Positions 1-60,058 of a stretch of DNA of 64,000 bases are shown here, in pieces. Location: positions 21,454,001 to 21,518,000 of the forward strand of contig CM119372.1 in the NCBI GenBank assembly GCA_051294905.1, in the 5' to 3' direction. Within the stretch, counting starts at the first letter, position 1, and every line of letters begins with the position of its first letter. The translations under genes were made by a program, and so were the position numbers. The notes under the pieces were generated by a model that was given only the letters and a program-made list of their open reading frames with translations, did no database searches and was not told the DNA's origin. The stretch comes from Botryllus schlosseri. Lineage: Eukaryota.

Positions 1-39
1 GACCATACTCATTGACTCAGAGACAGAGTCAGAGATCAG

Positions 40-966
40 ACTGAGAGGCATACCTCTGCGAAATTTTTCAGGGATTGGCATTTTCAGCAATTTAGCAGCC
101 ATCGCTGCCTTCAGTTTGTCAAGAATCTTTGGATTAGCTGAGAACATGGTAAATACCACCATTTCCTCAGTTAGATACCAATGATGTTTTCGCAATTTCT
201 TGTATGCCACATCAGCAACAGTGAGATCGCATAATGAAAAGTTTTTCATGTCATGAATGAATTTGAGATCATTCCAAGGTGTGTCACATGCAATACCAGT
301 TTTCAACCAAGCTGGAACATAAAACAAAGCAATGAATGTATTGATTTGTTCCAACTTTTCAATGAACTCTTCAGAATAGTCCATTTGCTCACTCCACATG
401 AACATTTTTTGACAGTACAGGACTTGACTCGTCCATCTAGCGCTATGAGTAGCACCAGGCTTGCGAAAACGATGCTCAACATATTTGTCATCCAAAATCG
501 CCAAGGTCCCTGTTGCATATTCTCTGTAGTCATCTCTTATCAAGACTTCTTTCTTCTTTCCATCATTGGGTTTCATCAGTGGAATTATTTCTTGCTTTAC
601 TTCATCAGCTTTCATCGCCAACCAGCTGCCTTCAATAAACTTCTGCGTTTTATAGTATCTTGATTTATCAATATGTTTCCACTTCTTCTTGAAGGTATTC
701 AAATCCTGTTTTCATGGCCTGTGGTTGTCGATCCAAACAAACACTTCCAAACCTCTCGAATGACCAGTTCATAAATATGATGGCGACAGGCATTGTAGAA
801 AACTTTCCTGTTAATCAATTCTTCAAGTAACGGAACCGCACCTTTGTTTTTACCAGTGTTTGAGGATGTTGTGTCAAACACAAGAGCTCTAACAGATTTT
901 GTTAAATTCCAAAGTTCCAGCAGTTCAAATGATGCATCAGCCTGTGCTTTTCCTGTAGCACTTTCC
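40..966 (-). pseudogene. Decayed hATm-like transposase, catalytic core
   Basis: Minus-strand frames give ESATGKAQADASFELLELWNLTKSVRALVFDTTSSNTGKNKGAVPLLEELINRKVFYNACRHHIYELV and YKKLRKHHWYLTEEMVVFTMFS, broken by frameshifts and stops. Confidence 0.75.
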
Positions 967-15011: not shown

Positions 15012-15899
15012 TCTAAATTGTCCTAATGCGCCTCGATTGCCCACTTCTCCAAAGCAAAAATATCTCTAAAACTTTAAAATCGCAATCCTACGCCTAGAAT
15101 AGCATACTGGGCGACTAATAACTGCTCCAATTAAGCTTTGTACTTATTTCAAGCACTAAGAACGAGATATACACAGACACACCTAAAACACGATCGAAAG
15201 GTAGCGATGTAAATTTACTCAGGTCAGCCAAATTAAGAATGTTGTCATCTTCTCAAAAAGACAGCGACCTTGGCGAAATGAAACCGCATCAGGATTACGG
15301 CTGATAAGACACTACAAAATCATCGAAGCGAATACGTTTCCTCTCCGATTTCAAAATTATTTACGATGTACCACTGTGCCCCATCTTCTCCTATCATTAT
15401 TATTGACAAAATATCCATTACCCTTAAAATATTTTCACGACGCGTGCGACAATGAAGGTGTGATAGGTGGATAGAAATATATATAGATAAGTCTTGCATG
15501 CCTTCGTGAAATGCATGATTCCAGTCCATATTGGCTACCAAGAGAGAGCTTTTTAACCGTGTGTAGCACCGGTGTACAGTGATAAATGACCCGTATTAGA
15601 TAATGGGCTTTGGACGGTTAAAAATTGTGCTGAAAATCCTAGGTTTGCCAAGACCAGCGTTTGAGGCGAGCTGACAAAGTGCTGTCTCTATCCTAGACAG
15701 GAGGGGTGCGAAATACTTTCATGAGAGCTCAAGGGGTACAGGCGATCAAAAGGTTGAGAAATACCGTTTCAGAACAGAATTTAGGTGCGTGTGGTATTAT
15801 GTGTTAGCAGAATACATATACAATGATAGATACAGTCACACAAGTAGTGTAGTAGATCGGTCGCGAACTAACGTTTTTTGCATGGGGCTCTTATGGGCC

Positions 15900-16860
15900 C
15901 GCTGGTGACTCGTATTGAAAACTCGTGTTGGTGACTCGTACTTTCAGACCCCCCTCTCGCTCGTGATTCGTAATGGGTTCTTATGGATGCGGCGGTGACT
16001 CGTACTTTCGGGTATAGGCTGCGGCGATGACTCGTATTGAAAACTCGTGTTGGTGACTCGTACTTTCAGGTATGGGCTGCGGCGGTGACTCGTACTTTCG
16101 GGTATAGGCCGCGGTCGTGATTCGCCGTGAAAACTCGTGGTCGTGACTCGCCTTTTTTGCTATAGGCGGTGGCGGTGATTCGCCTGTCATGTATTCTTAC
16201 GGGATCTGTGGTGACTCGCTACGTATTCTTATGGGTGCGGTCGCATGCTAACGAGAAACCGGGGGTGGCATGCTAACGTTTTCGGGTATAGGCTCCGGTC
16301 GCATGATAGCGTTACAGAGATAGGGATCGGTCGCATGCTAACGTTTTCGGGTATAGGCTCCGGTCGCATGATAGCGTTACAGAGATAGGGATCGGTCGCA
16401 TGCTAACGTTTTCGGGTATAGGCGGCGGTCGCATGCTAACGTGAAAACTCGTGGTGGCATGCTAATGTTTTTTGGTATACGTGCGGTGACATGCTAACGT
16501 TCCAGTTATAGGGTGATGAAGTGGTGTTTCGACCCCTCCCGGTGGCACGATAGCGTTACGGAGATAGGGATCGGTCGCATGCTAACGTTGTGTCTTGTGG
16601 TCGCACGGTAACCCTTTTCAGTATTGGGATCGGTCGCATGCGGCTTCGTTGTTGGTATGTCGTACTTTGTGTTGAATATGTATCAAGTAAATAGTCAAGT
16701 GATTTTTCCTTAGTTAGTATCATGAATTATTATATACGACCAATTTGAAGTAATCCGAACGTTTACGGCGAGCGCGACTTCGATATATCGTTATTCTTAT
16801 GGACGCGGCGATGATTCGTACTTTCGGGTATAGACTGCGGGCGGTATGTCGTGCTTTTAG
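15900..16860 (+). repeat. Subterminal tandem motif array of the Polinton-like element (mirror copy at 27164-28124)
   Basis: Outer block built on GGTGACTCGTA and inner block on GGTCGCATGCTAACG at ~25-35 bp spacing. A 65-bp unit recurs at 16268, 16333 and 16398. Confidence 0.9.
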
Positions 16861-18399
16861 CAAAAAAGGGTGTGAAATAGTTTGCTAAATCTAGGAATCA
16901 CTTGCTTGGTAATATTTTGGTAATTAGTTTGCCACAGAACCGGCGTAGACGGCGATTCAAATACAAACAATAGCCGCGTTCACATACTAACACTTCAATA
17001 AGGTGTGAAATATTTGTAAAATCCTACGATCGCCAACAAGATAACACCTCAGACATAGTCATCTTTCACGACTTGGTGTCATAGCCATACTGATCGCTCA
17101 CACGGTGAAATTTTAGTAATCAGTTTGTCACAGAACTTGATTTCGCTGGTAAGATTTAATAAGTAACGAATAACAGACCGTCAGTGTCGGTAACTTGAAT
17201 AGCGACAAATTGTCACTTATTTCCGCTCTAACCCTAATCCTTTGTGAAGTGAACGCTTATTCAAAAGGGTGTGATATAATTTTAAAATCCAACGACCACT
17301 CACCGGATAATGCTTCAGACATAGCAATCCCTCATGCCCGCTCACAAGGTAATATTTCGGTAATTAGTTTGTCACAGAACCGTCGCAGACGGTGATTCGA
17401 AAACCAACAATTTGTCACTTGCCCGCGACCGCTATATGTTTCACGCCTCCGGAATAGTGGCTGACTTTAGTTGCGTGATAAGATCTATGAAAATATTCAA
17501 TCAATGCGTTAGTTTGTCAACTTGAAATGAAACTCACTACACAAATCAAGTTGAATCGTATTTGAATGTATTGATTCGATCCAACTCAAATCCTTTGACA
17601 AATCCTATTAACGCGATCTGTTGAATCGAACGTAACCTGAATATTACTGATGCCAACATTCACCCGCATCGGATTATTCACACATTCCGCACCGCTGTTT
17701 TCACACCTATAGAATCAATACCAACTAGCTCAATGAGAATCAGGAATAACAAGTATACAATAATTGTATTTAATACTGAGAAATCAAACGCTTAACAAAA
17801 ACACGCAACTAATCATTTGCCAACTCTAGCATTACCAAAAAAATTCAGGCATTGTTGATTGAAAATCCTTGAGTCCATATCAAAAATGTTATAGTGCAGT
17901 GTCGGAATCCATTCGCGAGATGTACTAAAGGTAAATTCAGATAATCCAAAATGAAATATTTGGACTTTGACATAGTCTGAATTGAAATAAATTGACAAAC
18001 ATGACTACCAACTTTCAATCCAGTCATATTTAGAATTAGATTTGAAACAAGTAATGAAACCTTACAACTCTATTCACGACTGAGTTTTCCGTTTGTCAAA
18101 TAGAGTTTCAGTAATTACTATCGCGATATTTTAATGTGTTACTACACACAATCAAGTCAGTCAATGAAATACCACCTGTTGTGAATATTTCTAACTTGAC
18201 AACCACTTGTGCATGCCACGATCTAGTTGCGACGCGATGAGTTAAATCGGAATATTTCAATCTATTTGTCGAAACCTTGAACAAGCTGTCTGGTTATTTT
18301 TTTTGTTGCAATTGAGATAACGGAAATAGTATTACGTCTCGACATTTTAACATCTTACCATACTCCAAAGAGTCAACAAGGAAAAACCTTGTCACGTAA

Positions 18400-19900
18400 A
18401 TCCGATTGTAACTCACCCAATCAACTCAACAGTATCCGTATGGAAAGTAGTCGAGATTACGCAAGTACATACAATCGCTACAATCTAAAATCCATAGCAA
18501 GTTCGGTTGTAGTCATATACCGCCAACTCGTCTTTTTTGTTCAACTGTGAAAGTAATTACTACTCGGTATACCGTGTAACATAAAGTAATTACTACTCGG
18601 TGCACGCAACTTGAGATTGGTATATGTTGAGAATATACGACATTTGAAAGTCTGACCAACGTAGTTAAGAATTCATTTCTCACGATCAAACGCAGGTGTT
18701 ATATTGAAAATTATCATGATGTAAACATATGGATTGACACAGTGATTTGACATATGTAATAGTTGATCAAGACTTGATTATTAAATTATTCACGGTAATT
18801 AGACCCGATGCTGTGGTAAAGGTTATTATGACAGCAACAAACTTTTCAGTACCATTGTTATTAACATATTGAGTTGCAAAACTATGCGTGTCTGAATTGT
18901 TCTTGATTGGAAAATTATTCCACCTTGGTACAAATTACCCTGCGTATCGCGGATATCAGAAAATATTTTACAAATGTAATTGTTTCCAGTTACCGAGACT
19001 AAAGATGAAACAACAATTTCGTTTACTGATTAACAACCGGCGCAATACTTCATTGTCGGAATCTGCGACGAAGAACTGAAACACATACCCGCATTACCCC
19101 AGTGTCAAGATGTGTGAATTGACATACCGCCGCTTGATTAATGCTTAATCCGTTCGCACCATTTCCCACACACTTTGATCATTACAAAAAACAAATTGGA
19201 ATATGTTTTCTAGACACCTCCTATTCAACTAGGTTTGAGTAATACAGAAAACTCTTGACATTAATAAAATCGAAACATATGCTTCACTGAATACTACAAA
19301 ATGTGGTTGCATTGATGTTCAATGTTTTATAGTAGTGATCATAAATTATCATTTGAATCTTATAAAATTGTAATCATAAAACCAAACCACAGGAAGTCAT
19401 CAAAAGCATATGGCAGGATGTTTGCTCAATGCATCCTAGTTTGGTAAACTGGAATTATTTGTAGAACGCACACCATCAAAGAAAAACACGCAACCACTAA
19501 CACGATTCCTAGTTGAGATTGAACTCCTAGTCATTTTCTACGCGTGCACAACTATAGGGTCGTTTTTCTGGACACAAGACCTAAAATTTTTGAGTTGTCA
19601 AAACGACACACATATTTGTAATTATCACTTACTTGGTTAAAGCTAATGCATCGACGGTAACAACCGACACGGATCATTACTATTTATTTCATAATCATTT
19701 CAACAAAATTACACACACTGTACATTGTTGCTTTTTGCGTGACACGAGAATAAATCAGATCACAACGAACTTAATGTGTATTTTACTCACTCGTCGCATT
19801 ATGGATATTGACCAACATCGTTTCAACGTCGTGCATCGTTTTGCCGAATACGAAATATGTTAGTGTAGCAAATGTTTTAGCGTAACAGAAAACTATTTTC
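18400..19900 (+). pseudogene. Highly decayed protein-primed family B DNA polymerase (pPolB) relic, left arm
   Basis: Collinear motifs: YPY (18433), IPPTRLFCS (18517, cf. LPP...FYS), YHD.....D and LDP at the expected spacing (18712, 18799), YGR (19409, shifted frame) and TDTD (19666, cf. YTDTDS). All but YGR share one frame. Many stops; boundaries approximate. Confidence 0.65.
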
Positions 19901-21559
19901 ACTTTCTTGACTTTTGAAAACAATACACGCGCATTTTGTTTGTGTCAACTATAGTTACTTGTAAGATACGACTGATAATCCCCGCGACTCATACAAAAGT
20001 ATGAAATATATTTACATCACGCAAAGTACTCAACCTTGCACGATATTTTTTGGTACTACGAAACTCAAGAATGATTGCCTACGCTTTCAAAGTAAACAAT
20101 GCTTAGTTAGACTCCACAAACTGTTTTGACGTCGCAAGTGTTTTTGACATGAATGATCCAACGTAGCTTATTATTCACATAGCTCGATACAGCACTAGTA
20201 CTTACAAAAATATCAGAGTTGTTTACACAAAAGTTTGTATATGTACAATATGTGAATACCATGCGTAAGTCCTGCACAACCGCGGTATCTGTCCTAGTTT
20301 AGTCAACACACATTTATTACACCGGATCGCGTAAACTTTCGTAGAAGATAAGCATAGTCACTACTCGAGGGTTCTGGCAATGTCATAGCAATAAACCAGT
20401 TACTCCAACAACAGAGTAGAGTACCTATGTTTTCTAGTCACCATCCTTAAATCTTACACACAAAACAACCAACTTTGCAAACGAAAAGTGCTGAGTCATC
20501 ACATGATTGCCGGCACAACAAAACGACTAGTAGATGGAGCCGTAATAAAAATGTTCCTAACCCTTAGCACACCAGTGACAAATCGTGCAATGGATATGTT
20601 TTGTCGAGTTGTTGTTGAGCGTCAAGTCTTCGTGTTGAACCGAACATTTGAACAGCACAACCACGATCCAATTGTAACCACGAATCTATTTTCATTTTGA
20701 CACAAACTATCGCGTACAGAAAAATAAATTTTCTTTCCTCAACACATACTTGTATCCAATCACTTTCGTCAAACACACAACTCAATAAAATTGTTACTTT
20801 CTACAACATCAAAAGCCCGATTTAGTTGTACATGTAGTTGAGAAATATTTTTATTAATCAAAATCATCGATTTCTGTTCACGGTGTTAGTGTGTGCATGT
20901 CATACCTGTGGGCCCCTCCGTATTAAAATGGACACGACACGACTGAATGTAAGGGGATAGAAGTCTATCGCATCGATTTACATGTGGTCTTCGCTACGGT
21001 TTCATAAAACGAATCATCTATTTTTCATTGGTCGAGACCGAGCGAGTCAGTTACATGTATTCGCAGTAATGATTTTGCTTGCCATATGCGAATGATAGGT
21101 TTGCTACTCCGACAAATCAAATCAACATACAACAATCTTCTGACGATCATAATAGCAATTTCATTTTCCGCCCCTTCGTAATTGTATACGCACGAAAAGT
21201 ATATTGTACAACTCGGCAACTACGTTTAACAAGAGCAATCACACTACCAGCGTTGAACACAAGATACCTACCCAAGTCAAAAATATCATACTGGTTTGGA
21301 CAACTGACGTTTACCTGTGTAAAATTATCATTTTCACTTAGTGATCTATCCTTTCCTAGAGTAACAAACCCTTGTCGTTTACAAATCTATTTTTTTCCTA
21401 CAGCAAAAAACTATTTTCACTTGGAAAAATACTTTTACCTAGATGTGGCTTATTGGTATGACATTGTTATCGGGTGTGATGACATTCGATCTGCATCAAA
21501 ATTACCGGCTATGATAATGTCTGTGGATCGAAGACTTACTCCCCGATGTTTGTATACCA

Positions 21560-22184: not shown

Positions 22185-22750
22185 TCAAAATGAAAATGGT
22201 TTTGTGACTCTAGGAAAAGCTAGATGACTAAGAGAAAATGTATTGTTACACTGGGTAAACGCCAGATCTCCAAAGGAAAATGATATTTTTACTCAGGTAA
22301 ACGACGACCCGCCAAGTGAAAATGGTTTGTTGCTCAGGGAAAAAATATATTTCCAAGTGAAAATGGTTTGTTGCTGATGGAAAAAATATATTTCCAAGTG
22401 AAAAAAATTTGTTACCCAGAGAAAAAATATATTTTACAAGTGAAAAAGGTTTGTTACCCAGGGAAAAATAGATTTCCGAGTGAAAACGGTATTGGTACTC
22501 AGGTAAATGATATTTTTCCAAACGAAAAGGGTTTGTTACCCCGGGAGAAAATATATTTTCAAAAGAAAATGATTAGTTACTCTAGGTAAAAGTATTTTTC
22601 CAAGTGAAAATAGTTTTTTGCTGTAGGAAAAAAATAGATTTGTAAACGACAAGGGTTTGTTACTCTAGGAAAGGATAGATCACCAAGTGAAAATGATAAT
22701 TTTACACAGGTAAACGTCAGTTGTCCAACCCAGTATGATATTTTTGACTT
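22185..22750 (+). repeat. Degenerate ~41-bp tandem array straddling the spacer/right-arm junction
   Basis: Units like AAGTGAAAATGGTTTGTTGCTCAGGGAAAAAATATATTTCC recur near 22314, 22355, 22396, 22438, 22479, 22520, 22561, 22602, 22644 and 22685. Confidence 0.85.
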
Positions 22751-25700
22751 GGGTAGGTATCTTGTGTTCAACGCTGGTAGTGTGATTGCTCTTGTTAAAC
22801 GTAGTTGCCGAGTTGTACAATATACTTTTCGTGCGTATACAATTACGAAGGGGCGGAAAATGAAATTGCTATTATGATCGTCAGAAGATTGTTGTATGTT
22901 GATTTGATTTGTCGGAGTAGCAAACCTATCATTCGCATATGGCAAGCAAAATCATTACTGCGAATACATGTAACTGACTCGCTCGGTCTCGACCAATGAA
23001 AAATAGATGATTCGTTTTATGAAACCGTAGCGAAGACCACATGTAAATCGATGCGATAGACTTCTATCCCCTTACATTCAGTCGTGTCGTGTCCATTTTA
23101 ATACGGAGGGGCCCACAGGTATGACATGCACACACTAACACCGTGAACAGAAATCGATGATTTTGATTAATAAAAATATTTCTCAACTACATGTACAACT
23201 AAATCGGGCTTTTGATGTTGTAGAAAGTAACAATTTTATTGAGTTGTGTGTTTGACGAAAGTGATTGGATACAAGTATGTGTTGAGGAAAGAAAATTTAT
23301 TTTTCTGTACGCGATAGTTTGTGTCAAAATGAAAATAGATTCGTGGTTACAATTGGATCGTGGTTGTGCTGTTCAAATGTTCGGTTCAACACGAAGACTT
23401 GACGCTCAACAACAACTCGACAAAACATATCCATTGCACGATTTGTCACTGGTGTGCTAAGGGTTAGGAACATTTTTATTACGGCTCCATCTACTAGTCG
23501 TTTTGTTGTGCCGGCAATCATGTGATGACTCAGCACTTTTCGTTTGCAAAGTTGGTTGTTTTGTGTGTAAGATTTAAGGATGGTGACTAGAAAACATAGG
23601 TACTCTACTCTGTTGTTGGAGTAACTGGTTTATTGCTATGACATTGCCAGAACCCTCGAGTAGTGACTACGCTTATCTTCTACGAAAGTTTACGCGATCC
23701 GGTGTAATAAATGTGTGTTGACTAAACTAGGACAGATACCGCGGTTGTGCAGGACTTACGCATGGTATTCACATATTGTACATATACAAACTTTTGTGTA
23801 AACAACTCTGATATTTTTGTAAGTACTAGTGCTGTATCGAGCTATGTGAATAATAAGCTACGTTGGATCATTCATGTCAAAAACACTTGCGACGTCAAAA
23901 CAGTTTGTGGAGTCTAACTAAGCATTGTTTACTTTGAAAGCGTAGGCAATCATTCTTGAGTTTCGTAGTACCAAAAAATATCGTGTAAGGTTGAGTACTT
24001 TGCGTGATGTAAATATATTTCATACTTTTGTATGAGTCGCGGGGATTATCAGTCGTATCTTACAAGTAACTATAGTTGACACAAACAAAATGCGCGTGTA
24101 TTGTTTTCAAAAGTCAAGAAAGTGAAAATAGTTTTCTGTTACGCTAAAACATTTGCTACACTAACATATTTCGTATTCGGCAAAACGATGCACGACGTTG
24201 AAACGATGTTGGTCAATATCCATAATGCGACGAGTGAGTAAAATACACATTAAGTTCGTTGTGATCTGATTTATTCTCGTGTCACGCAAAAAGCAACAAT
24301 GTACAGTGTGTGTAATTTTGTTGAAATGATTATGAAATAAATAGTAATGATCCGTGTCGGTTGTTACCGTCGATGCATTAGCTTTAACCAAGTAAGTGAT
24401 AATTACAAATATGTGTGTCGTTTTGACAACTCAAAAATTTTAGGTCTTGTGTCCAGAAAAACGACCCTATAATTGTGCACGCGTAGAATATGACTAGGAG
24501 TTCAATCTCAACTAGGAATCGTGTTAGTGGTTGCGTGTTTTTCTTTGATGGTGTGCGTTCTACAAATAATTCCAGTTTACCAAACTAGGATGCATTGAGC
24601 AAACATCCTGCCATATGCTTTTGATGACTTCCTGTGGTTTGGTTTTATGATTACAATTTTATAAGATTCAAATGATAATTTATGATCACTACTATAAAAC
24701 ATTGAACATCAATGCAACCACATTTTGTAGTATTCAGTGAAGCATATGTTTCGATTTTATTAATGTCAAGAGTTTTCTGTATTACTCAAACCTAGTTGAA
24801 TAGGAGGTGTCTAGAAAACATATTCCAATTTGTTTTTTGTAATGATCAAAGTGTGTGGGAAATGGTGCGAACGGATTAAGCATTAATCAAGCGGCGGTAT
24901 GTCAATTCACACATCTTGACACTGGGGTAATGCGGGTATGTGTTTCAGTTCTTCGTCGCAGATTCCGACAATGAAGTATTGCGCCGGTTGTTAATCAGTA
25001 AACGAAATTGTTGTTTCATCTTTAGTCTCGGTAACTGGAAACAATTACATTTGTAAAATATTTTCTGATATCCGCGATACGCAGGGTAATTTGTACCAAG
25101 GTGGAATAATTTTCCAATCAAGAACAATTCAGACACGCATAGTTTTGCAACTCAATATGTTAATAACAATGGTACTGAAAAGTTTGTTGCTGTCATAATA
25201 ACCTTTACCACAGCATCGGGTCTAATTACCGTGAATAATTTAATAATCAAGTCTTGATCAACTATTACATATGTCAAATCACTGTGTCAATCCATATGTT
25301 TACATCATGATAATTTTCAATATAACACCTGCGTTTGATCGTGAGAAATGAATTCTTAACTACGTTGGTCAGACTTTCAAATGTCGTATATTCTCAACAT
25401 ATACCAATCTCAAGTTGCGTGCACCGAGTAGTAATTACTTTATGTTACACGGTATACCGAGTAGTAATTACTTTCACAGTTGAACAAAAAAGACGAGTTG
25501 GCGGTATATGACTACAACCGAACTTGCTATGGATTTTAGATTGTAGCGATTGTATGTACTTGCGTAATCTCGACTACTTTCCATACGGATACTGTTGAGT
25601 TGATTGGGTGAGTTACAATCGGATTTACGTGACAAGGTTTTTCCTTGTTGACTCTTTGGAGTATGGTAAGATGTTAAAATGTCGAGACGTAATACTATTT

Positions 25701-28181
25701 CCGTTATCTCAATTGCAACAAAAAAAATAACCAGACAGCTTGTTCAAGGTTTCGACAAATAGATTGAAATATTCCGATTTAACTCATCGCGTCGCAACTA
25801 GATCGTGGCATGCACAAGTGGTTGTCAAGTTAGAAATATTCACAACAGGTGGTATTTCATTGACTGACTTGATTGTGTGTAGTAACACATTAAAATATCG
25901 CGATAGTAATTACTGAAACTCTATTTGACAAACGGAAAACTCAGTCGTGAATAGAGTTGTAAGGTTTCATTACTTGTTTCAAATCTAATTCTAAATATGA
26001 CTGGATTGAAAGTTGGTAGTCATGTTTGTCAATTTATTTCAATTCAGACTATGTCAAAGTCCAAATATTTCATTTTGGATTATCTGAATTTACCTTTAGT
26101 ACATCTCGCGAATGGATTCCGACACTGCACTATAACATTTTTGATATGGACTCAAGGATTTTCAATCAACAATGCCTGAATTTTTTTGGTAATGCTAGAG
26201 TTGGCAAATGATTAGTTGCGTGTTTTTGTTAAGCGTTTGATTTCTCAGTATTAAATACAATTATTGTATACTTGTTATTCCTGATTCTCATTGAGCTAGT
26301 TGGTATTGATTCTATAGGTGTGAAAACAGCGGTGCGGAATGTGTGAATAATCCGATGCGGGTGAATGTTGGCATCAGTAATATTCAGGTTACGTTCGATT
26401 CAACAGATCGCGTTAATAGGATTTGTCAAAGGATTTGAGTTGGATCGAATCAATACATTCAAATACGATTCAACTTGATTTGTGTAGTGAGTTTCATTTC
26501 AAGTTGACAAACTAACGCATTGATTGAATATTTTCATAGATCTTATCACGCAACTAAAGTCAGCCACTATTCCGGAGGCGTGAAACATATAGCGGTCGCG
26601 GGCAAGTGACAAATTGTTGGTTTTCGAATCACCGTCTGCGACGGTTCTGTGACAAACTAATTACCGAAATATTACCTTGTGAGCGGGCATGAGGGATTGC
26701 TATGTCTGAAGCATTATCCGGTGAGTGGTCGTTGGATTTTAAAATTATATCACACCCTTTTGAATAAGCGTTCACTTCACAAAGGATTAGGGTTAGAGCG
26801 GAAATAAGTGACAATTTGTCGCTATTCAAGTTACCGACACTGACGGTCTGTTATTCGTTACTTATTAAATCTTACCAGCGAAATCAAGTTCTGTGACAAA
26901 CTGATTACTAAAATTTCACCGTGTGAGCGATCAGTATGGCTATGACACCAAGTCGTGAAAGATGACTATGTCTGAGGTGTTATCTTGTTGGCGATCGTAG
27001 GATTTTACAAATATTTCACACCTTATTGAAGTGTTAGTATGTGAACGCGGCTATTGTTTGTATTTGAATCGCCGTCTACGCCGGTTCTGTGGCAAACTAA
27101 TTACCAAAATATTACCAAGCAAGTGATTCCTAGATTTAGCAAACTATTTCACACCCTTTTTTGCTAAAAGCACGACATACCGCCCGCAGTCTATACCCGA
27201 AAGTACGAATCATCGCCGCGTCCATAAGAATAACGATATATCGAAGTCGCGCTCGCCGTAAACGTTCGGATTACTTCAAATTGGTCGTATATAATAATTC
27301 ATGATACTAACTAAGGAAAAATCACTTGACTATTTACTTGATACATATTCAACACAAAGTACGACATACCAACAACGAAGCCGCATGCGACCGATCCCAA
27401 TACTGAAAAGGGTTACCGTGCGACCACAAGACACAACGTTAGCATGCGACCGATCCCTATCTCCGTAACGCTATCGTGCCACCGGGAGGGGTCGAAACAC
27501 CACTTCATCACCCTATAACTGGAACGTTAGCATGTCACCGCACGTATACCAAAAAACATTAGCATGCCACCACGAGTTTTCACGTTAGCATGCGACCGCC
27601 GCCTATACCCGAAAACGTTAGCATGCGACCGATCCCTATCTCTGTAACGCTATCATGCGACCGGAGCCTATACCCGAAAACGTTAGCATGCGACCGATCC
27701 CTATCTCTGTAACGCTATCATGCGACCGGAGCCTATACCCGAAAACGTTAGCATGCCACCCCCGGTTTCTCGTTAGCATGCGACCGCACCCATAAGAATA
27801 CGTAGCGAGTCACCACAGATCCCGTAAGAATACATGACAGGCGAATCACCGCCACCGCCTATAGCAAAAAAGGCGAGTCACGACCACGAGTTTTCACGGC
27901 GAATCACGACCGCGGCCTATACCCGAAAGTACGAGTCACCGCCGCAGCCCATACCTGAAAGTACGAGTCACCAACACGAGTTTTCAATACGAGTCATCGC
28001 CGCAGCCTATACCCGAAAGTACGAGTCACCGCCGCATCCATAAGAACCCATTACGAATCACGAGCGAGAGGGGGGTCTGAAAGTACGAGTCACCAACACG
28101 AGTTTTCAATACGAGTCACCAGCGGGCCCATAAGAGCCCCATGCAAAAAACGTTAGTTCGCGACCGATCTACTACACTACT
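22581..28181 (-). repeat. Right arm of the 5.6-kb inverted repeat
   Basis: Reverse complement of 15843-21443, with six substitutions seen. Confidence 0.98.
24124..25624 (-). pseudogene. Mirror copy of the pPolB relic, right arm
   Basis: Reverse complement of 18400-19900. Confidence 0.65.
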
Positions 28182-49936: not shown

Positions 49937-50979
49937 TAGGGATGGTGTGAACGTGAGGTTCACGTTCGCGTTCTGTGTGTGAACTGTGAACCTCGGAAAT
50001 TTAGAGGTTCGCGTTCACAACAGAACCTTGGTAGGTTCTGCACTGTGAACCTTTTTCATATATTATAATTTTCACTTCATTATAACATCTTTGGTTCATA
50101 TTAATTGCATTTCAACTGCGGGCCACTCTATGCATGGCGCTGGCAGCATTAAAAATTAACACTATAAACGAGCATGCACCTTGACAATCTCAAAAGTTTT
50201 AGTTGCTTTGTAACAAATGTTTGCTCGAAATATTCAGGGATATCTAGACCCTGGAAATATTCAGCTTTCCGTTTGTGAATATTTAGTGTCTCTCTGCTGT
50301 GAGTTTGACCTGCGATCACACAACATCACGAGCGAAATAGCCTACGTAGTCAGCGAATGATGCTTATATTCAACCAATCAATGAGATTGATATCGTTTTC
50401 TGATGCAAAAAAGCTAGCAGGGGTACGGGGCAATCTTGACTCCATATCTTTACTGCATCACGAGAACCAAATCCCTGTGATTGAGGTGTTGTCTACTGCT
50501 GTAAAACTTGTTAATGGGGTAATATCGGTAGCAAGTATAGAAACCAGTTTTACTCTCAGCTCAATATCAATGTAGCGATAGGCTACTCAGACGCCGAATA
50601 CATTGTCCGGTCTGGCCTAGGCCGTTAAGGCGTAAGCTTATATTCCCTGGTAAGTCCTCGTCGAAATTGTTGGCAAAGCGACGGAAGATATTGATTTTAT
50701 AGGAGTATTATATCCTTTGATTGCCTCAGTTGAAACATTTAGTGACGTTTAAAACGCCAACATGTACTTCTGCATTGTGACATGATGTGGCCCGAGTCGT
50801 CGCTAGATAGCCTATCGTGTACGCTAATATAGGCTATCACTTCATTGAAAGATAGGGTTGGAATTAGCAATATGACGTCACGTGACGTCATGAGGTTCAC
50901 GTTCGTGTTCACACAGAACCTTTCAAAAAGGTTCGCGTTCACACGAACCTGAACCTTTCAGAGGTTCACACCATCCCTA
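49937..50979. mobile_element. Full-length TAGGGATGGTGTGAAC MITE
   Basis: 16-bp TIRs; ATATATAT on both flanks, inserted in a TA run. Confidence 0.9.
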
Positions 50980-51037
50980 ATATATATATAACCATCTTTA
51001 GCAACACAAAATGTCTCAACATTCCAGCCGTAACCAC

Positions 51038-51464
51038 CAGAGATGAGCGGATTTGAAATTTCTATGTCCTAATCCAATCCAAATCCGAACCTTCAAATCC
51101 AAATCCAAATCCTAATCCATAACATTTTTATATTCAAGTCCATGTCCAATCCTAATCCGATTCCAACTGGAAATTCAGAAAAAATACTAATTTATGCAAT
51201 GAAGGGATTCGAAAATTTTCTTTCACAACCAACGATTCACTTGATTCAAGATAACTTAGTAACCATAAGTACATTAATAACTGATCTGAATAAAGTCTGT
51301 CGCCATTCGCCACATGACATTTCAATCTCCCAGAAAATAGTTCAATCCAATCCAAATCCTAATCCGTTCTGAAAAAAATGTCTAATCCAAATCCAATCCA
51401 AATCCGACAAAATTTCACAAATCCTGTTTTTTCAAAACCTAATCCTAATCCATGCTCATCTCTG
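51038..51464. mobile_element. CAGAGATGAGC MITE, ~160 bp downstream of the GPI-protein stop codon
   Basis: TIRs intact; TSD GTAACCAC / ATAACCAC. Confidence 0.9.
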
Positions 51465-51621
51465 ATAACCACACCAAGCGCAGCATAAATTCCAAACGGC
51501 AATATAAGCATCAACATTCTCGGAATCGCGTATGTAAGGTAAGGAGTCCGAGGATTTATGAGGAGCACACTTCTGTTTTGCCATTCTTTGAGATCCCGTC
51601 CGATTTTGAAGGTGCCATGTT

Positions 51622-51946
51622 TTAGCTCCAAACGTTTTTCAACATCACCGTCATGGTTAAGATCCCTAAGAGGTTGCTGGCTTGGACCGCTGTCGAGGAA
51701 CCGGTTGTGGTGCTTGTCGCGGATGTCGGACGCAACCTGGTACTTCCCGTCGTAGTGTTATCATCGCTCTGCCTTGTGATATTATTGGTGTCTGTGGCGG
51801 TAGTTTCAACTCGTGGTCCCTGATGTCGTCGGTCTTCCTTTCCTTCCTTGGACTTAGAAGACTCGCGTATGGTTGAGACTGGGGTGGTGGCTAGTTTAAT
51901 TTGCGCGTTACACAGGTTGGCCGAGCACGCATTATAAACGCAGGAT
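51622..51946 (-). CDS. 810-aa secreted, probably GPI-anchored protein, exon 4 (last)
   Basis: TTTGCAG acceptor in phase 2; encodes SCVYNACSANLCN, a Ser/Thr-rich stalk and a hydrophobic tail GSSTAVQASNLLGILTMTVMLKNVWS*. This exon is absent from the ORF track. Confidence 0.85.
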
Positions 51947-52475
51947 CTGCAAATCGCAATACAGGTACATTTATGAGACCTGTCAGTCTATGTTTTTATT
52001 GATAAATTAAAATTTGACTTTCATGTTAAATGCTAGTTTGGCGGTGATAAATATGTGTTCACTTCTAACTAAGGTTGTATTCAAAGTAAAGCGCGTTTTA
52101 AATATTTTAATGTTTTTAAAAAAAGCTGTGTAAAAACATAATTGTCTTTTTTGAGCCTGGAGAACTATTTCAAAATTGTCTAAATCATTTTGATAGACAA
52201 TTTAGCGAGACCACGAGGTCGACTTGCACTAAAAATAACTGATGCATATGATCTGGAACATAGACGCTCTCCCCAAATCGGCAGTTGCATCACGCAGGTT
52301 ATGCATCACGCAGGTTATGCATCAGTTAATCCAGGAGGCTAGCTTTCGTTACCGTTACATGATTTACTGTCTGTCAACGCATCGCCGTTGACAGCTTGAT
52401 ATTTCTTTTTGATTAATACGATATATTATGACACCATGAAAGCGTACCAAACTATAATCTACAAACTCTACTTAC

Positions 52476-52714
52476 TGTGGGGAGAATCGCCTTCGTAATT
52501 CGTCCATGAATGTCCCTAGCTTCGACGTAATTCTCGCTACCGTTTGATTGAGAGCCCACACCATGCTCTCGAAGTACCTCCCGTCGGAAAAACTACCACC
52601 AGCTTGGTAATTCCATTCATAATAGCCAATGTAAAGCTGTTTGATATCTTCTCGATCAAGGACTTGCATCAGTCGAATATAGAATGAGAAATCAGGGAAG
52701 GCCTCCAAGATATT
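52476..52714 (-). CDS. 810-aa protein, exon 3
   Basis: TTTATTTAG acceptor in phase 0, GTAAGT donor in phase 2, open frame NILEAFPDFSF...RRRFSP. Confidence 0.85.
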
Positions 52715-52995
52715 CTAAATAAAAGTAATCAATATTATGTAAGGTTGCGGATAAAGCCTTTTCACTAATTACTTTACATGACTTGTCGATAGCAAGGACG
52801 GGCAAGAGGTTTATGGGATCTAATTCGACCGAGGTGTCATAATCAAATCAAAGACATCAATTGCTTTTGTTGGGCCCTTAAAACAGTGATGGAAAACCTT
52901 TTTGCATGGATATCTGGAATGTTTTGAAGTACAAAGAGTACAACATAGAAATACACCTGGACATCCATGCTATTGCCCAATATGCTATTATAAAT

Positions 52996-53417
52996 TAGGG
53001 TTACCATATTTTGGAAACGGGAAAGGAGGACACTTTTTCAAAATTTTCAAACTTAGAGTATCGATGAAAAATACTGAAAATATGGTCAATTTATTCCACT
53101 TCGTAGTCGGTTGACTAAAAAAGAGGGGATATTTCTCGCTCAGCGACCAAAATACTGTTTTTTCATTCACTTTATCAGGTGGTTGACTGAAAAAAAAGAA
53201 GTCAACTTTTTACTCAGCTCCCCAGATACCCGTCGGAGCGTCACTTCGGTGCTGATTTGCGGCATCTCAGTCGCATTTTGTTAGGAATTTGACCAAAATT
53301 CCTCAAAAAGAGGACAAAATCTCAAAAATGAGGACATTTACGCGTCCCCGGAGGACATTTTCAAAAACCCGAAAAAGGAGGACAAATCCTTCTAAAGGAG
53401 GACGTATGGTAATCCTA
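52996..53417. mobile_element. TAGGGTTACCATA MITE (intronic)
   Basis: TIRs with one mismatch; TSD TTATAAAT / TTATAAGT. Confidence 0.85.
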
Positions 53418-54323
53418 TTATAAGTGATATATGCTGATTGGTGATATCCCTCGCGACTTGGTGGCCAGCCAATGTAGATTGCAATGGTATAATTTCACGA
53501 ATTGATCAATTTGGTCGGTGACAAGAGAAATGATGATACAGGCTATGTGAACACAAATGGAATGGCGTTACAAACTCTTGTGGGCAATTTTATAAACGCA
53601 GGTTATAGGCCTATATGCAGAGGTGGTCAGTAACGAAGTACTTCTACTTTTTCGAAGTACTCAAGTAATTTTCCTCTACTTCTGGTACTTACTCCTGTAT
53701 ATCTGATTTTCGCTACTTCTACTTCTACTTCGTAATATTTTGTGATCTACTTACTTACTTTTCGCTATTTGCAGTTTGTCAAGTAGAAGTAATTTAATCC
53801 TCGAATCGGGAAAATAGCCTGAGGAAATTCGGGGTTGTTTTCACGGATCATCAACATTTAATTCATAAAATTAGAGTAAAGCCCAGAATTTCCGTCGCGC
53901 TTCGCGCGCAGTGGCTACGGAGTAACCAGTATGATTTCACGATTGTATCGATGAATATCATTTAGGTGGCGGGTTGGCGTGGTTCCGTTCACATGGCATT
54001 GTCGCCCTTCGTCATATCAAATATTTCGTCACAGTATATGATATTATGGCTCATCATAACGTTTGAAACTGATGTTTCGTAATCTAGCATTTACTTATCA
54101 TATCGTAATCTAGCAGTCCATGGCGTGTCCTAATCTGCAAAAGTGGACTCTGACTTTTTTATTAGATTTAGAGCTGTTTTAGAATACCAACCATCGAAAC
54201 TTTCTCGACTAAAGACATGAAATACATGTTCCGCTTTTAGAACTAGTATTAATATTTCACTTTCATTTCCCAGTAGCATAGACTTTCAGTTCTATTAATT
54301 GATACCAATTCTTTTGTGTGGAT

Positions 54324-55477
54324 GGTTGCCGGTGAACTCAGCCTTACAAACTCGGCCCTCGGTGAACTCGGACCTCGGGAAATTTTGTAATAAAGTGTAT
54401 TAAAACAAGTATTAATATGAATTATTAAACTAATAATGTTATTATCAAGTGATTTGTCAATATTGTAAGGAGGTCAGGGCATGCGTAGATCACGCAGTCA
54501 CGGCGTGATCATATCACGTGATCACGGACTGCGCAAGCGCCAAGCGCGGGAAAGAACGCGACGTTCACATATCGACCACGCGTGGTCGGCTCAGTGTTGA
54601 ATTGACTTGGCGAGGGGCGGATGTGCGACGTTCGACATCCTCGTATCTGTTCATGACATCGTATTGGGTCTTATCGCATTGTACATTGTGTGTGACTTGT
54701 TCAGATTAAAAATATATCCCAACGATTGTTATTGCTCACATATCAACCACGCGTTGTCTGCTCGTTGTTGCAACTGTAGGTTGAGGTGGGGTGTTAGGGT
54801 TGGGTAGGGTAGGGGGGGAGGAAGACATTAGGGTTAGGGGAGTGGAACATTAGGGTTGGAGAAGGGGGACATTAGGTTAGGGGGAAGGAAATATTAGAGT
54901 TGGGGAAGGGGGACATTAGGATTGGAGGAGGGCGATATTGGGGGTGGGGGATATTAGGGTTGGTGGTGGGTTAGGGTTCCAGTTTGGGTTAAGGTATCCC
55001 AAAATTAGGGTTAGGGGAGGAGGGACATTAGGGTTGGGGGAGGGCGATATTGGGGGTGGGGGATATTAGGGTTGGTGGTGGGTTAGGGTTCAAGTTGGGG
55101 TTAAGGTATCCCAAGATTAGGGTTAGGGGAGGAGGGACATTAGGGTTGGGGTTGGGGGACATTAGGGTTGGAGTAGGATATTAGGGTTGGGGAAGGGGGG
55201 ATATTAGGGTTGGAGGAGGGGATAGTCGGGTTGGTGGTGGGTTAGGGTATCCCAAGATTAGGGTGCCCTGACATGAATATCCCCCAGTCGTATTATCTAG
55301 GGTTACCATATTTTGGAAGTCTGAAAAGAGGACCACATTTTCATTTATAGTTTCGGAATTAGTGCGACTGTAGCTTTTGATCAAGACCAAATTCAGTAAA
55401 TTCTGTTTTAATACAAAATTCACCGAGGGCCGAGTTCACCGAGGGCTGAGTTTGTAAGGCTGAGTTCATTGGTAATC
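54324..55477. mobile_element. TIR element (MULE-like ends) carrying a G-rich minisatellite, nested in 53618-56090
   Basis: ~45-bp TIRs (GGTTGCCGGTGAACTCAGCCTTACAAACTC...); flanking duplication GTGTGGAT; the sister copy shows the empty site near 39375-39390. Confidence 0.8.
54781..55265 (+). repeat. G-rich degenerate minisatellite with TTAGGG cores
   Basis: Many units like GGACATTAGGGTTGGGGAGG, plus a ~112-bp duplicated block. Confidence 0.9.
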
Positions 55478-56208
55478 GTGTGGATAACATACATATTGAA
55501 GTATAAAAGCAAGTGTGGTAATGTTTTTAATTTCCGGATATAAAGCTACACAGTATGACATTTTTACGATTCATCATATTTTTTATTATCGTTTACTAAT
55601 CGCGTAAAGTGTTTACACCGTATCCTTTACATCTTCTCCGTATTGCTCTTCGACTAAACTACAGGCATTATAATATGGGGGAGGGCGCCATACCATGATA
55701 TTCACTAAAACGTGCTGTTCGAGTAAACAGAGGATTAGTATCGCATTTCCATATCAATACTATCATTTTTATCCCATGATGCGGACGAATGCCCAATTGC
55801 CCATGCTGTCGAAAATTGGATGCCTCCTGGTATGAATCAATATGAATCAAGCTCGGCAACTTTCGCATAGCTCAATTTACACCTTTTGACAATCCATGTG
55901 AACGGATTACGATCGTTTTCACAACTACTAACTTACTTGAGTAGATTTAAAGTCAACCAATTCTACTTCTACTTCAAGTAGTTTTAGGTTGCTTATTGAG
56001 GAAGTACTTCTACTCGTACTTAAGTAGATTTTTTCGTCGCTACTTCTACTTCTACTTAAGTAGCTTTCTTGACTACTTTGACCACCTCTGCCTATATGTA
56101 CCGCGTCACTCGTTCTCTGTATCGTAAATACGCAGCTTTACACGGAACGCGGCCAGTCCTATACCCGCATATGAATTCAAGAGTGTTTACACAATATTGA
56201 GGACTCAC

Positions 56209-57881
56209 TTTGTAAATCATTTGATCCTTGGTGAAAACTTCATTGATGAGAGCGTATTGAAGATCGACATTGATGCTCAAGGCCATAACGTTGAGCTTTC
56301 TATCATGTTCCCGAAAAGCAATGTAGCGCTCATTCTGGCACGCTTCTACTTCAGTCCAGTTGATCTTCTGATCATCTTCGAACTGGCTTTCAAAACAGTC
56401 TTGATGCTGAGGTATGTCGTAAGTTTGGTTGTAATACTCAACAAATTTTGTTGCAATACTCGGGAATTCCGACTTGGGATATAACTCTTCATATTCCTGA
56501 ATAATTTTTTGTGCTACTTTCAAATATGTGTCTCGACTCTCCATATTCACGTATGGCATGATTAGACTTTGTAGGTTTACCAACAGCGGATCCAGCGGCT
56601 TTGGAATGTGGTATCCCAAATTTACGAGAACTCTCTTCAGGATATCTCCTAGGTTGAAAACTGGCCACTCCGCGAATCCCTCCAGCAGTGTCGTGAATAT
56701 AATATCCATTTCATCTTTTCGGCTGTCCAAAAGTGTGTACGTAACGCGCGATAGATTGATAACAATTAGATTGACCTTTTGATGAAGCGTACTTGCTTCT
56801 GGATGTGCTAATACCGTTTTGAGCAGCAGGAAGTTTACGAATTCGCTCATATTAGATTTTTTCAAAGTGATGTTGGGCTTGTCGAAGTCGATTAATTCTA
56901 TTCCTTCCGCAATTGTGTTGTAGATATTATCGATATCGGTTTTATTGCCGGGGAAAAGGTTGTAGTAAATCCCTGGCAACCATGTAACCAGCAAATTCAT
57001 ATCACCCGACAGTGGTTGTTGAAAGAACGAAACGTAAAGCCTGGTCAAAGCTGATGACAATCTCTTCGTCGCCGGCGTCAGCGTGCTCTCTTGGGATAAA
57101 AGCTTGGCGGACCAATGAAACGGATAGTAATAGTTGCCGCTAGCCATATTCTCCACCAAATCAGGCGTGCTGTCCATAATTGGATTCAGATATCCTGAGT
57201 ATTCTTCTGGAATTTTCATATTCTTCTTCATCGTGCTCATAACCCTCATCGTGGATTGCCTGGGCTTGTTAATGTTAACGTCTCCGAGTAGTTCGAAAAA
57301 CACACCGTACCATTTGTCGACTTGTAAGTATTTCGGCAGAATGGACTTGATTAGTCCCGGCAAATTATTCACCAGCGACGAAAAAACCGACTCGTGAAAT
57401 TCCTGTATGTCTTCGGGTCCCATGAAATTACCCAGAAAGGAGTAAATCTGAGATGAAATCTTCGCCTCTTTGGTGTCGAGCTGTCCCAAAGCTCCCGTAA
57501 TGTCCGCTATCACCGCATCCAGCTGCTTAATCCAGTCTGTTATATAGTAAGGGCCGGGTGAGGGAAGTGTGAGATTCACCAACTTCACAAATCCAGGCTG
57601 AAGCGGCAACGCTTTCTCCATGTTAAAACCTAAATTTCCCAAAAGGGTGTAGCATCCGGATATAAAGGATTCGGTTCCAGTTCCGTTCGACAAGAGAATC
57701 CGGAATCTTTCCGTTAAATTCTCTCTGAATTCGTCCATTATGTACTGAATTTTATCATCTAGATCGGGAAGCATGTTGAATACGATAGATGGGTCGAGAT
57801 CGCTGCCCTCGCCAAACAATTTCTCGCAAGTAAGCAGCGGAGAGTACTCTCTCGAAATACACTCGCCGTATTGCATTCCCA
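56209..57881 (-). CDS. 810-aa protein, exon 2 (1,673 bp)
   Basis: Most of the 596-aa ORF; TTTTGTTTTAG acceptor in phase 1 and GTGAGT donor in phase 0 after ...QMIYK. Confidence 0.9.
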
Positions 57882-57984
57882 CTAAAACAAAAAACCTCCG
57901 TAAACTTTTAACAAATGTCTCGCTTTTACATCGTGGTGGTTAGTGGTCCACGTATTGTATATGAACGCATAATTGAATACGTAC

Positions 57985-58180
57985 CTTCTAAGTCGGTCGA
58001 AGGGATTTGTAACATGATTTTCTGAGCGAAACAGTCACTGTGCTCTTTGCAACTTCTCCGACTCCAGTGGTACAGCGGTAGGCCCATGATCGACGCATTG
58101 AACCCTTCATGACATTGTAACCCTATAACATCGTCGGCGCATAACCACCCCGTAAGCGCAACCAGCCAATATATTTTCAT
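57985..58180 (-). CDS. 810-aa protein, exon 1 (signal peptide and start of the three-finger-like frame)
   Basis: ATG at 58180; MKIYWLVALTGWLCADDVIG then LQCHEG...SCKEHSDC; GTACGT donor in phase 1; 103-bp intron joins exon 2 in frame. Confidence 0.85.
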
Positions 58181-58600
58181 TTTGGATTGGTCGTACTGTG
58201 CACAACACTGCGCCGTATTTGTCGAGTATTGCTTGCTGTGTTTTAAGCCTAAAACCAAATTCTAAATACGAATGGTAAGGTTACCACGACTGACCGAAGA
58301 GGCCTATTTATAATATCGAATAGGATATTACAATTGTAACAATTATATACCGTTACAAAACTAAATATACCATTACCAGCACGACGTTTTTATCACATTC
58401 TATTGTGAAGCGGATGATTGAATTGGTGATATAACACAAATTTAAACTCTGACTTATCAACAGAAATAATATTTTCAGGAATGGGACACAACCGCTGGGA
58501 GGCTTGAGTCTAAGTAAACGCGAATTTTTTGGAAAGTTCCGCCGTGAACGCGAATCCACGACGTGATTCGAAATAACAGCCTCAGGCCTACGTTATATAG

Positions 58601-60058
58601 CAAGGGTCGGCAACCTACGGCCCGCGGGCCGGATCCGGCCCGCCAAGCGAAATCGTCCGGCCCGCGACATAATAATTAGTTTTCACAAGAATGCGGCCCG
58701 TCGTTTCACAATGAGTTTCAATCAGCAGTGCAGCACTGCTTGGAAAGAATTCGGCATTGATACGATATAAGTTGCCTAAACGCCACAAAACGAAGGCGGT
58801 TGAAGTAGGAGATCGAGATTGTCTAGAGTAGACTAGATCAGTGCTTATCAATCGGGTGTATCTCGCAACCGAAGGTGTACCATATACTTTTTGAAGGGTT
58901 TACCGATGGGGTGTGACAATAAAGGTGTCCTTCCTCTGCTTCAAAAGCGCTTGGAACATCTCAGACGCAATGACAAAATCTCAAACTTAAACTGTTTAAT
59001 TACAGATAACTAGCCTCCGTAGGCTAGTTATTCATGGTTTAATTCACCAGAAGGCATTGTGCGCCAATACTACAAACCTGAAGTGTTTCGGCCGCAATGA
59101 TTAAAACTGTAAATATCATTTTGTCTCACAAACTGAATCACCAACATTGTTACGACAGATAACTAGAAGCATAGAATCAATATGGCGATGTAATGTATAT
59201 CTGCCATGTTCGCGCATCAAGTCGAACAGCTATGCTTGCACGAGTCTATGAACTGAGAAATGAAATAGCATCTTTCCCCGAAAATACAAATATCGCTGAC
59301 TCATAATCTTGTAATCGAAAATGGGTATCTAATCTTGCTCTCCTGGTAGGCTACATTACGCCTACCAGGACGTCACATCTGTACAAATTGAATTCGCAAC
59401 TTCGGGGGGGGGGGGGATAACTGAATACATGAGATGTTGAGCCGCACCAACACTATATTTGTAACTGTGATAAGAAATTTAATTACTGAATATTCACCCG
59501 CTTTTCCGACATTCCTTCTGTACAAAATAAACTCTGACTATTCAGTACTCCATTTAATGTGGACGCCAATACCATTGTCTCAAAATTTCAAATGGGCCTT
59601 TTTGAATTGCGATGCAGTTGGATTGAATGACAAATTTCATACAAAGAGCATATCGCTGCATGACTTCGACAAAGAGTACGTTCTTGAAATTGATCTTTAT
59701 CCCAGCTTATCAAACGATGCAGAAGACAATAGTTTTGAACAATGAAATTCACGAATATAGAAAGCCAAGATCACGTATCTCGGACGCCCATTTCGAATGT
59801 GGTCTGATTTTTGCTTCATCTGACTGTTACTAGAAGTTGAAAACCTTTCACAAAGCAAGCTGCGTCAATTGTCATATTTATTCTGCGTTGTTGAAGTGTA
59901 AATACTTGTGTTTTATGATTGGTATGATTGAGATTGCAGCAATGTAGGATAATATACCGAAGTGAGCGGAAAATATAGTACTAGGAAAAATTCCGGCCCG
60001 CCAAAAAGTTGTACACTCGAAATTTGGCCCGTGACTAGCAAAAGGTTGCCGACCCCTG
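58601..60058 (+). mobile_element. Charlie-like hAT deletion derivative with transposase relics
   Basis: TIRs CAAGGGTCGGCAACC / GGTTGCCGACCCCTG; perfect TSD TTATATAG; KPRSRISDAHFECGL resembles the hAT C-terminal RSRLTD.HL motif. Confidence 0.85.

Follow-up and report, generated by a model that had tools for sequence, protein, structure and literature searches.

Can one small disulfide-bonded domain be assembled from two segments of a protein that lie 620 residues apart, and what would such a protein do? The question is raised by a gene on the minus strand of a 64,000-nucleotide (nt) window of the Botryllus schlosseri genome (assembly GCA_051294905.1, contig CM119372.1, positions 21,454,001–21,518,000; coordinates below are positions within this window). 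The gene (51622–58180) is real, spliced and expressed. A program check of the window yields an 810-amino-acid (aa) open frame from four exons, with introns that are all GT..AG and have phases 1, 0 and 2, reproducing the gene structure proposed in an earlier, sequence-only reading. We regard the encoded protein as a new variant of the Ly6/uPAR-like (LU) fold that carries a helical insert, and the gene as a member of the A74 family; its function we infer.

The LU fold and its cysteine frame

The passages of the review PMC6600238 that define the LU domain describe a contiguous unit of 60–90 residues, occurring singly or in tandem, whose ten cysteines are bonded 1–5, 2–3, 4–6, 7–8 and 9–10, with the 2–3 bond often lost. 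An unglycosylated Asn follows the last cysteine, a phase-1 intron lies at the tip of loop 2, and a separate signal-peptide exon is typical but not universal. The window protein has cysteines at positions 14, 23, 44, 50, 73, 84, 142, 561, 580, 705, 710 and 715, the last followed by N716. Its putative LU strands A–C (aa 21–65, within exon 1) hold the conserved C23, C44 and C50 and correspond to strands at 22–62 of the A74 model described below; strand D and a helix replacing strand E (aa 66–84; 57826–57881) hold C73 and C84. Strand F and the last loop, with C705, C710, C715 and N716, lie at the start of exon 4 (51907–51946).

The fold was tested on a model of A74 from Halocynthia roretzi (UniProt O15983, BAA22658.1; P0026 in our set), a full-length homologue of the window protein. 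The model was made with a 12-row alignment that includes exon 2 of the window gene, and has a mean predicted local distance difference test score (pLDDT) of 70.3 and a predicted template modeling score (pTM) of 0.45. Four strands at 22–76 and a short helix at 77–83 are followed by an all-helical insert and a last strand at 650–656, which is built by the last cysteine block; the N- and C-terminal blocks co-fold in this model, as the sequence-only reading had anticipated. When the model was compared with 48,161 chains, LU or three-finger proteins made up 31 of the 50 matches listed and 23 of the top 24, with aligned ranges like 21..670. These include GPIHBP1 (Z 8.8, root-mean-square deviation (rmsd) 2.8, 80/83 residues), CD59 (Z 7.7, rmsd 3.1, 75/78) and Lynx1 (Z 7.7, rmsd 2.8, 74/74). 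A second structural comparison gave 3hh7 (Z 8.2, rmsd 1.8, 65/65), and its top 12 rows are all LU or three-finger structures. Because the N-terminal half alone comprises only ~65 residues, these alignments must draw on the C-terminal block. The insert starts after the helix that replaces strand E and ends before strand F, which places it in finger 3. The model thus bears out the earlier proposal of one LU domain split in its third finger, and we consider it very probable that residues 21–84 and 705–716 form a single three-finger fold.

Several features are shared with LU proteins (GPIHBP1, CD59, Lynx1, TEX101, CD177, C4.4A, Prod1 and the TGF-beta receptor ectodomains have the three-finger fold in common with the family, by the A74 model). 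These are the L-x-C start, the terminal C-N, apparent loss of the 2–3 bond, a strand E replaced by a helix, a loop-2 intron of phase 1 and a GPI-type (glycosylphosphatidylinositol) tail; all but the first and last are points of fit with the review pattern. N716 directly follows C715 and is outside any sequon, and an Asn follows the last cysteine in eight of nine aligned rows, the ninth row ending earlier. Intron 1 (57882–57984; 103 nt, phase 1) cuts codon 66, 7 codons before C73 and a few residues past the hairpin of the A74 model (51–62/65–76). The C-x4-C-x4-C-N motif arose once in 20,000 shuffles of the window protein; since it is this rare and diverged relatives also have the two cysteine blocks, the cysteine frame is not a product of chance. 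The eight conserved cysteines are compatible with loss of the 2–3 bond. C84 and C705, putatively joined by a disulfide, lie outside the usual 7–8 positions and may constitute either a displaced 7–8 pair or a new bond.

The family departs from LU proteins in that its domain is discontinuous, with 565–2,446 residues in finger 3, its loop-3 cysteines are farther out than the usual 7–8 pair, and no separate signal exon is present: the signal peptide and strands A–C are together in exon 1, and an RNA contig reads through. The two LU pieces of the window protein total 76 residues and are separated by 620. Because they are not contiguous as in a canonical LU domain, we file the protein as a split LU-fold variant rather than as a canonical member.

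Several observations weigh against the fold assignment. No LU-clan profile in Pfam scores above cut-off in the family proteins (the best is CD59, E 0.5, in P0006), although a weak score is expected because the domain is split. Foldseek found no match for the A74 model at E ≤ 0.001, and LU Z values of 7–9 are middling by the tool's own guidance. The model is of A74 and not of the window protein, its pTM of 0.45 leaves the domain arrangement unsure, and 3 of its 12 alignment rows are near-duplicates (P0019–P0021 are near-duplicates kept in our set for alignment depth only). In addition, 10 residues between C73 and C84 and 4 between C705 and C710 depart from the usual LU 7–8/9 pattern.

The LU domain is among the most compact extracellular folds and is found nearly always alone or in tandem, according to the passages of PMC6600238 that survey it. 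A single finger that tolerates as many as 2,446 residues would mean a wider use of the LU scaffold and would account for the Pfam miss. Our literature search, in which subscription papers are thinly covered, returned no paper that describes an LU domain in two pieces or the A74-family architecture; the A74 papers of 1995, 1997 and 2005 lie outside this negative result and may contain a remark on cysteines or GPI anchorage. A term search of the main text of a 2026 domain-insertion survey (PMC13114784) found no mention of toxin, Ly6 or uPAR.

The helical insert and the A74 family

The sequence-only reading described the insert as cysteine-poor, rich in Leu, Ile and Phe, and probably amphipathic and helical. 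The length of about 620 aa stands, with the qualification that three cysteines (142, 561 and 580) are present and that Leu, Ile and Phe together make up 25%. The helical character is upheld: the insert is all-helical, with a hydrophobic moment above that of shuffles (z 4.4 here, 6.2 in A74). What that reading missed is a nested repeat array, as well as the existence of a studied family member, A74.

The array is bounded by two caps. The helical N-cap (57562–57825; aa 85–172) is 53–54% identical to P0014 and P0016, two relatives without repeats. It is followed by helical repeat unit 1 (57244–57519; aa 187–278; 41 bits), unit 2, the best-kept copy (56869–57192; aa 296–403; 83 bits, E 1.5e-19), and a degenerate unit 3 (56641–56853; aa 409–479; 13.7 bits). 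The profile behind these scores started from P0009 and P0011, the window protein being left out of its iterations, and reversed controls reached at most 5.4 bits. The C-cap has a first part containing the C561/C580 pair (56209–56532; aa 516–623) and a second part encoded by exon 3 (52476–52714; aa 624–703; family profile E 2.4e-18). Copies of the ~120-aa repeat number 21 in P0011, 17 in P0009, 4 in A74, 3 in the window protein and none in P0014 and P0016, where the equivalent of aa 63–174 is linked to that of aa 516–623 via ~25 residues. As read from these sequences, the layout is LU-half, N-cap, n repeats (0–21), C-cap, LU-half. Since the two ends of the insert must meet, the repeat array would have to return to its start. 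In P0011, an open frame of 2,739 codons from a 20-kb contig, the whole 21-repeat insert seems to lie in one giant exon.

A two-repeat piece of the window protein, with units 1 and 2, folds as helices (pLDDT 82.3). The structural search of the insert that had been suggested earlier was made with this piece and found no solved match (Foldseek best E 0.83), which is no proof of a new fold; with VIA, the best result was Z 6.7 at rmsd 16.5 and the remainder were short helical hairpins. Repeat 2 and both caps contain aromatic, Pro and Gly positions that are invariant across species. Searches with exon 2 of Pfam, a word index, the ESM Atlas and PDB sequences were blank, an A74 query of the Atlas gave no usable match (best feature score 0.79, TM ≤ 0.32), and the alignment profile found 3 rows among PDB sequences, all with E of at least 0.27.

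The window protein aligns with A74 over aa 6–718 (30% identity, 725 columns, E 2.5e-93) and is 38% identical to P0005. End-to-end homology with A74, the 5+3 cysteines, the caps and the helical repeat are all present, which places it in the A74 family as defined here. A74 further shares the signal peptide, the Ser/Thr-rich stalk and the GPI-type tail. It differs in its insert of 565 residues, against 620 here, and in lacking the C561/C580 pair; the window gene has an additional intron 2, where the A74-cluster frame P0012 runs through. A full phmmer scan returned 14 proteins, 13 of them family members. The other, P0018, was dropped as spurious, being a 1,037-aa proline-rich tandem repeat (E 9e-5) without the family cysteines. 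All named relatives are from ascidians, namely uncharacterised Styela clava proteins and A74; two profile searches, with ~8,000 candidates scored in each, added only P0027, so the range outside ascidians is unsettled. The Styela clava proteins LOC120342692, LOC120343116, LOC144420998, LOC120342139, LOC120342757 and LOC120338318 have the same architecture, with 3 to 17 repeats and identity reaching 38% across the complete ectodomain. Paralogues with other insert lengths, which the sequence-only reading had proposed looking for, do occur: inserts span 565–2,446 aa, besides the repeat-less forms. No paralogue is present within the 64-kb window.

Eleven of 20 sequences, from ~9 independent loci, have the whole 5+3 cysteine frame; of the nine incomplete sequences, eight resemble partial frames or a truncated model of older date. 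Family identity peaks in the two LU pieces and is lowest in the stalk. Two results count against the reading of the protein that we propose below. The current Styela model P0017 (324 aa) has the N-terminal block without the C-terminal one, and is either truncated or a real exception. In the tree, the window protein falls with P0014 and P0016 (support 95/92) and is not paired with A74, whose own place is poorly supported; the window gene may thus not be the A74 orthologue, and its function may differ.

One Styela model, P0022 (LOC120342757), is 3,513 aa long and equals P0009 plus P0023 end to end, with the inner tail and signal peptide retained. We dropped it from the family set as a false-looking join of tandem paralogues. 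It is probably an annotation error, yet also evidence of tandem clustering. Several Styela clava family members lie on one 25.6-Mb sequence.

Anchorage, proposed function and competing explanations

The signal peptide occupies aa 1–20 (58121–58180). Beyond the LU domain, an unconserved Ser/Thr-rich stalk (aa 717–783; 51706–51906) has 0–21% identity to relatives; its composition agrees with the earlier description, Ser and Thr making up 36% of aa 717–785. A GPI-type signal and the stop codon follow (51622–51705), with small residues at 784–786, a spacer and a hydrophobic tail, a C-terminal pattern that is family-wide: complete members end in small residues and a hydrophobic tail. By inspection and hydropathy, the layout is that of a GPI-anchored protein, with a signal peptide, a small-residue site ~25 residues from the end, a hydrophobic tail and no cytoplasmic part. 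We are highly confident that the chain is wholly extracellular, and its anchorage by GPI, predicted from these features, is probable. The signal peptide and tail claimed in the sequence-only reading are present, albeit at the weak end of the family. This weakness is a point against our reading: the best 11-residue mean of the signal peptide (1.71) is below that of every other member whose start is intact, and the 13-residue mean of the tail is 1.66 versus 1.75–3.05 in relatives, so that no complete member has a weaker signal and tail. In 5 of 11 inserts, including that of the window protein (10 versus 4.2), sequons are more numerous than in any of 300 shuffles; on the other side, no excess is seen in the remaining six, A74 among them (24 of 300 shuffles reach its count).

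We propose, with a probability of roughly 0.55 that covers the adhesion or recognition role itself, that the window protein is a surface glycoprotein of the ascidian A74 family, most probably one that is held by a GPI anchor and serves adhesion or recognition. In this proposal, the chain would enter the endoplasmic reticulum whole and be glycosylated along its length, and its C-terminal tail would be exchanged for a GPI anchor. The LU domain would form a membrane-near pedestal, with a C84–C705 bond clamping the insert at its two ends. The caps could pair with each other as a stalk, with the repeats looping out from and back to its tip; the repeats would be the working surface that binds other cells or particles, and their number may set reach or avidity. 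Any signal could be relayed by a partner in the membrane; one Styela paralogue could instead use a fused adhesion G-protein-coupled receptor (GPCR) unit. A blood-cell role in aggregation or phagocytosis, which would be carried over from A74 by analogy, is the weakest step. The A74 link gives the family an experimental anchor, and we take the Halocynthia hemocyte glycoprotein of the 1995, 1997 and 2005 papers to be A74.

The fused paralogue, which along with the A74 phenotype lends the proposed role indirect support, is P0024 (Styela clava LOC120338318), where the family ectodomain continues into GPS and 7tm_2 domains in place of the GPI tail of the others. Its junction fits a phase-1 splice, and the model combines two earlier half-models, of which one lacks a tail and the other a signal peptide. 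The fusion is nevertheless a single gene model, from the same annotation that seems to join paralogues falsely in P0022, and this tells against it. If real, it would hint at what the ectodomain senses and offer a route to ligands. A broader reading is tentative, with the odds somewhat against it: an undescribed ascidian receptor family in which a split LU disulfide clamp closes a loop of 0–21 new helical repeats, forming an out-and-back ring or hairpin that acts as a tunable adhesion ruler, GPI-anchored or wired to an adhesion GPCR, with A74 a GPI-anchored member whose 'ITAMs' (immunoreceptor tyrosine-based activation motifs) are extracellular structural helices.

The roles suggested by the sequence-only reading, namely lipid binding, gamete recognition and allorecognition, have gained no direct support, and each must be weighed beside the adhesion proposal. 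The same fold could instead serve as a structural coat, a GPI-tethered, shed or secreted spacer of glycocalyx, tunic or mucus without a specific ligand. The very high sequon counts of the long paralogues (67 and 84), the freely changing repeat number and the weak tail of the window copy would suit a coat, but the invariant aromatic, Pro and Gly positions, the same ectodomain on the adhesion GPCR model, and the description of the Halocynthia protein as active in aggregation and phagocytosis (in passages of PMC5465252) make it unlikely. A lipid scaffold, in which lipid is wrapped by the amphipathic helices in the manner of apolipoproteins and tethered through the LU domain, is less likely still. 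The helical moment (z 4.4 here, 6.2 in A74) and a clamped helix loop that could form a belt point in this direction, yet such a moment is expected of any helical bundle, the two-repeat piece folds confidently alone, and a belt fits dense N-glycosylation poorly; the top fold match, GPIHBP1, covers only the LU part and shows no function. We find equally improbable a determinant of allorecognition or gamete recognition with alleles that must match or mismatch. The multigene family and its fast length change would favor one, as would the action of LU proteins such as Bouncer in fertilisation (noted in passages of PMC6600238). Coding variation is, however, low in the two RNA sources that could be read: X6 shows a single difference over 1,640 nt of exon 2, and the 4 exon 4 differences of X23 among those listed (802 further difference rows lie beyond these) comprise two silent changes, one stop-to-stop change and one stalk residue.

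The remaining alternative is a membrane-spanning receptor with cytoplasmic ITAMs, whose two cysteine blocks would lie on opposite sides of the membrane or be unrelated. An ITAM has two YxxL/I tyrosines 6–8 residues apart. Such pairs do exist in A74 (353/357 with 369) and in the window protein (371 with 386, spacing 11), but the motif sits on the helices of repeat 2, the tyrosine pair is not conserved in the family, and the spacing in the window protein is not the usual one. Y353 of A74 is Tyr in one of nine aligned rows and Y357 in two, the others having Leu, Phe, Ile or Val; Y369 is invariant (9/9), which does not decide topology. Hydropathy reveals no internal membrane segment in A74 or the window protein, and thus none upstream of the motif: the best internal 19-residue values are 1.38 and 1.14, respectively, the former a beta hairpin in the model, versus 2.09–2.45 for the true membrane helices of P0024. 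The reported ITAM tyrosines of A74 would therefore lie outside the cell. Co-folding of both cysteine blocks in the A74 model and the six A74 sequons that lie after Y369 also oppose a cytoplasmic location. The case for the receptor comes from the passages of PMC5465252 that credit the hemocyte membrane glycoprotein to Takahashi 1995, Takahashi 1997 and Azumi 2005 and state that it has two ITAMs and associates with phosphoproteins; they use neither the name A74 nor the term LU domain. By its title in that source, the 1997 paper reports tyrosine phosphorylation, an ill fit for a wholly extracellular chain and hence a point against our topology, which could be explained, for example, by a co-purifying partner. 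On balance, we judge the ITAM receptor very improbable. Should the extracellular topology be correct, what the literature continues to cite as an invertebrate ITAM receptor would be a GPI-anchored protein with extracellular motifs, and the picture of A74 as a signalling receptor may need revision; the 1997 work appears in the reference list of a 2025 paper (PMC12582321).

Transcripts and other features of the window

RNA evidence comes from four runs out of 24 candidates, aligned to positions 50900–58900. The exons are 57985–58180 (exon 1, 196 nt, encoding the signal peptide and LU strands A–C), 56209–57881 (exon 2, 1673 nt, aa 66–623), 52476–52714 (exon 3, 239 nt, aa 624–703) and 51622–51946 (exon 4, 325 nt, from the LU end to the stop codon). 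Intron 2 (52715–56208; 3,494 nt, phase 0) is crowded with dispersed repeats, and intron 3 (51947–52475; 529 nt, phase 2) lies two codons ahead of C705. Both are joined in RNA. The exon 2–3 joint (52714/56209) is crossed by 4 raw X23 reads and the exon 3–4 joint (51946/52476) by 14, and X6 contig 10, with the exon 2 difference mentioned above, is continuous across all three exons; the joint of exons 3 and 4 removes the contrary case, raised in the sequence-only reading, of an exon 4 not spliced to exon 3. The intron 1 joint is not among the 15 RNA joints listed (277 further joints are not listed); an X6 contig match breaks off exactly at its donor (57985), with 23 letters remaining.

The 5′ untranslated region (UTR) extends over at least 58181–58263 (X6 contig 14, 58263–57985, zero differences) and the 3′ UTR over at least 51438–51621 (X6 contig 9, 51438–51792, and a pile of X21 reads). 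In X21, a single-cell run, the 3′ UTR reads are one-stranded (60 versus 0 at 51565), as expected because the mRNA is minus-strand. The stop codon of the X23 allele is altered, yet still a stop. Among Logan open frames of relatives, those of P0013 and P0014 start a little upstream of the intron 1 site, and those of P0011, P0012 and P0013 end at the intron 3 site. Since these frames start or stop exactly at the two positions, introns 1 and 3 seem to be old.

A pyrimidine-rich splice acceptor is present at 58250–58263, ahead of the start codon by ~70 nt. The RNA contig extends no more than ~12 nt past this acceptor, which could be a trans-splice acceptor or that of an upstream exon. X12, a run labelled as another organism, covers 51439–53015 unspliced with 3 differences and has zero depth on exon 2, a pattern that may reflect a gap in filtering, a mislabelled run or a mixed sample.

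Elsewhere in the window, an inverted repeat has arms at 15843–21443 and 22581–28181 that are 5,601 nt long and 99.9% identical, separated by a 1,137-nt spacer with short tandem units; it is either a young foldback element or an assembly artefact. Within intron 2, a very deep RNA pile covers 54629–54723 (~12,800 X23 reads at 54662, strand-biased in X21). Its reads continue into unlike sequence, and it is probably a repeat common to an abundant transcript from elsewhere; Rfam has no match in the window, this pile included. Also within intron 2, a degenerate G-rich array of telomere-like hexamers, with periods of 22, 66 and 112, spans 54805–55221.

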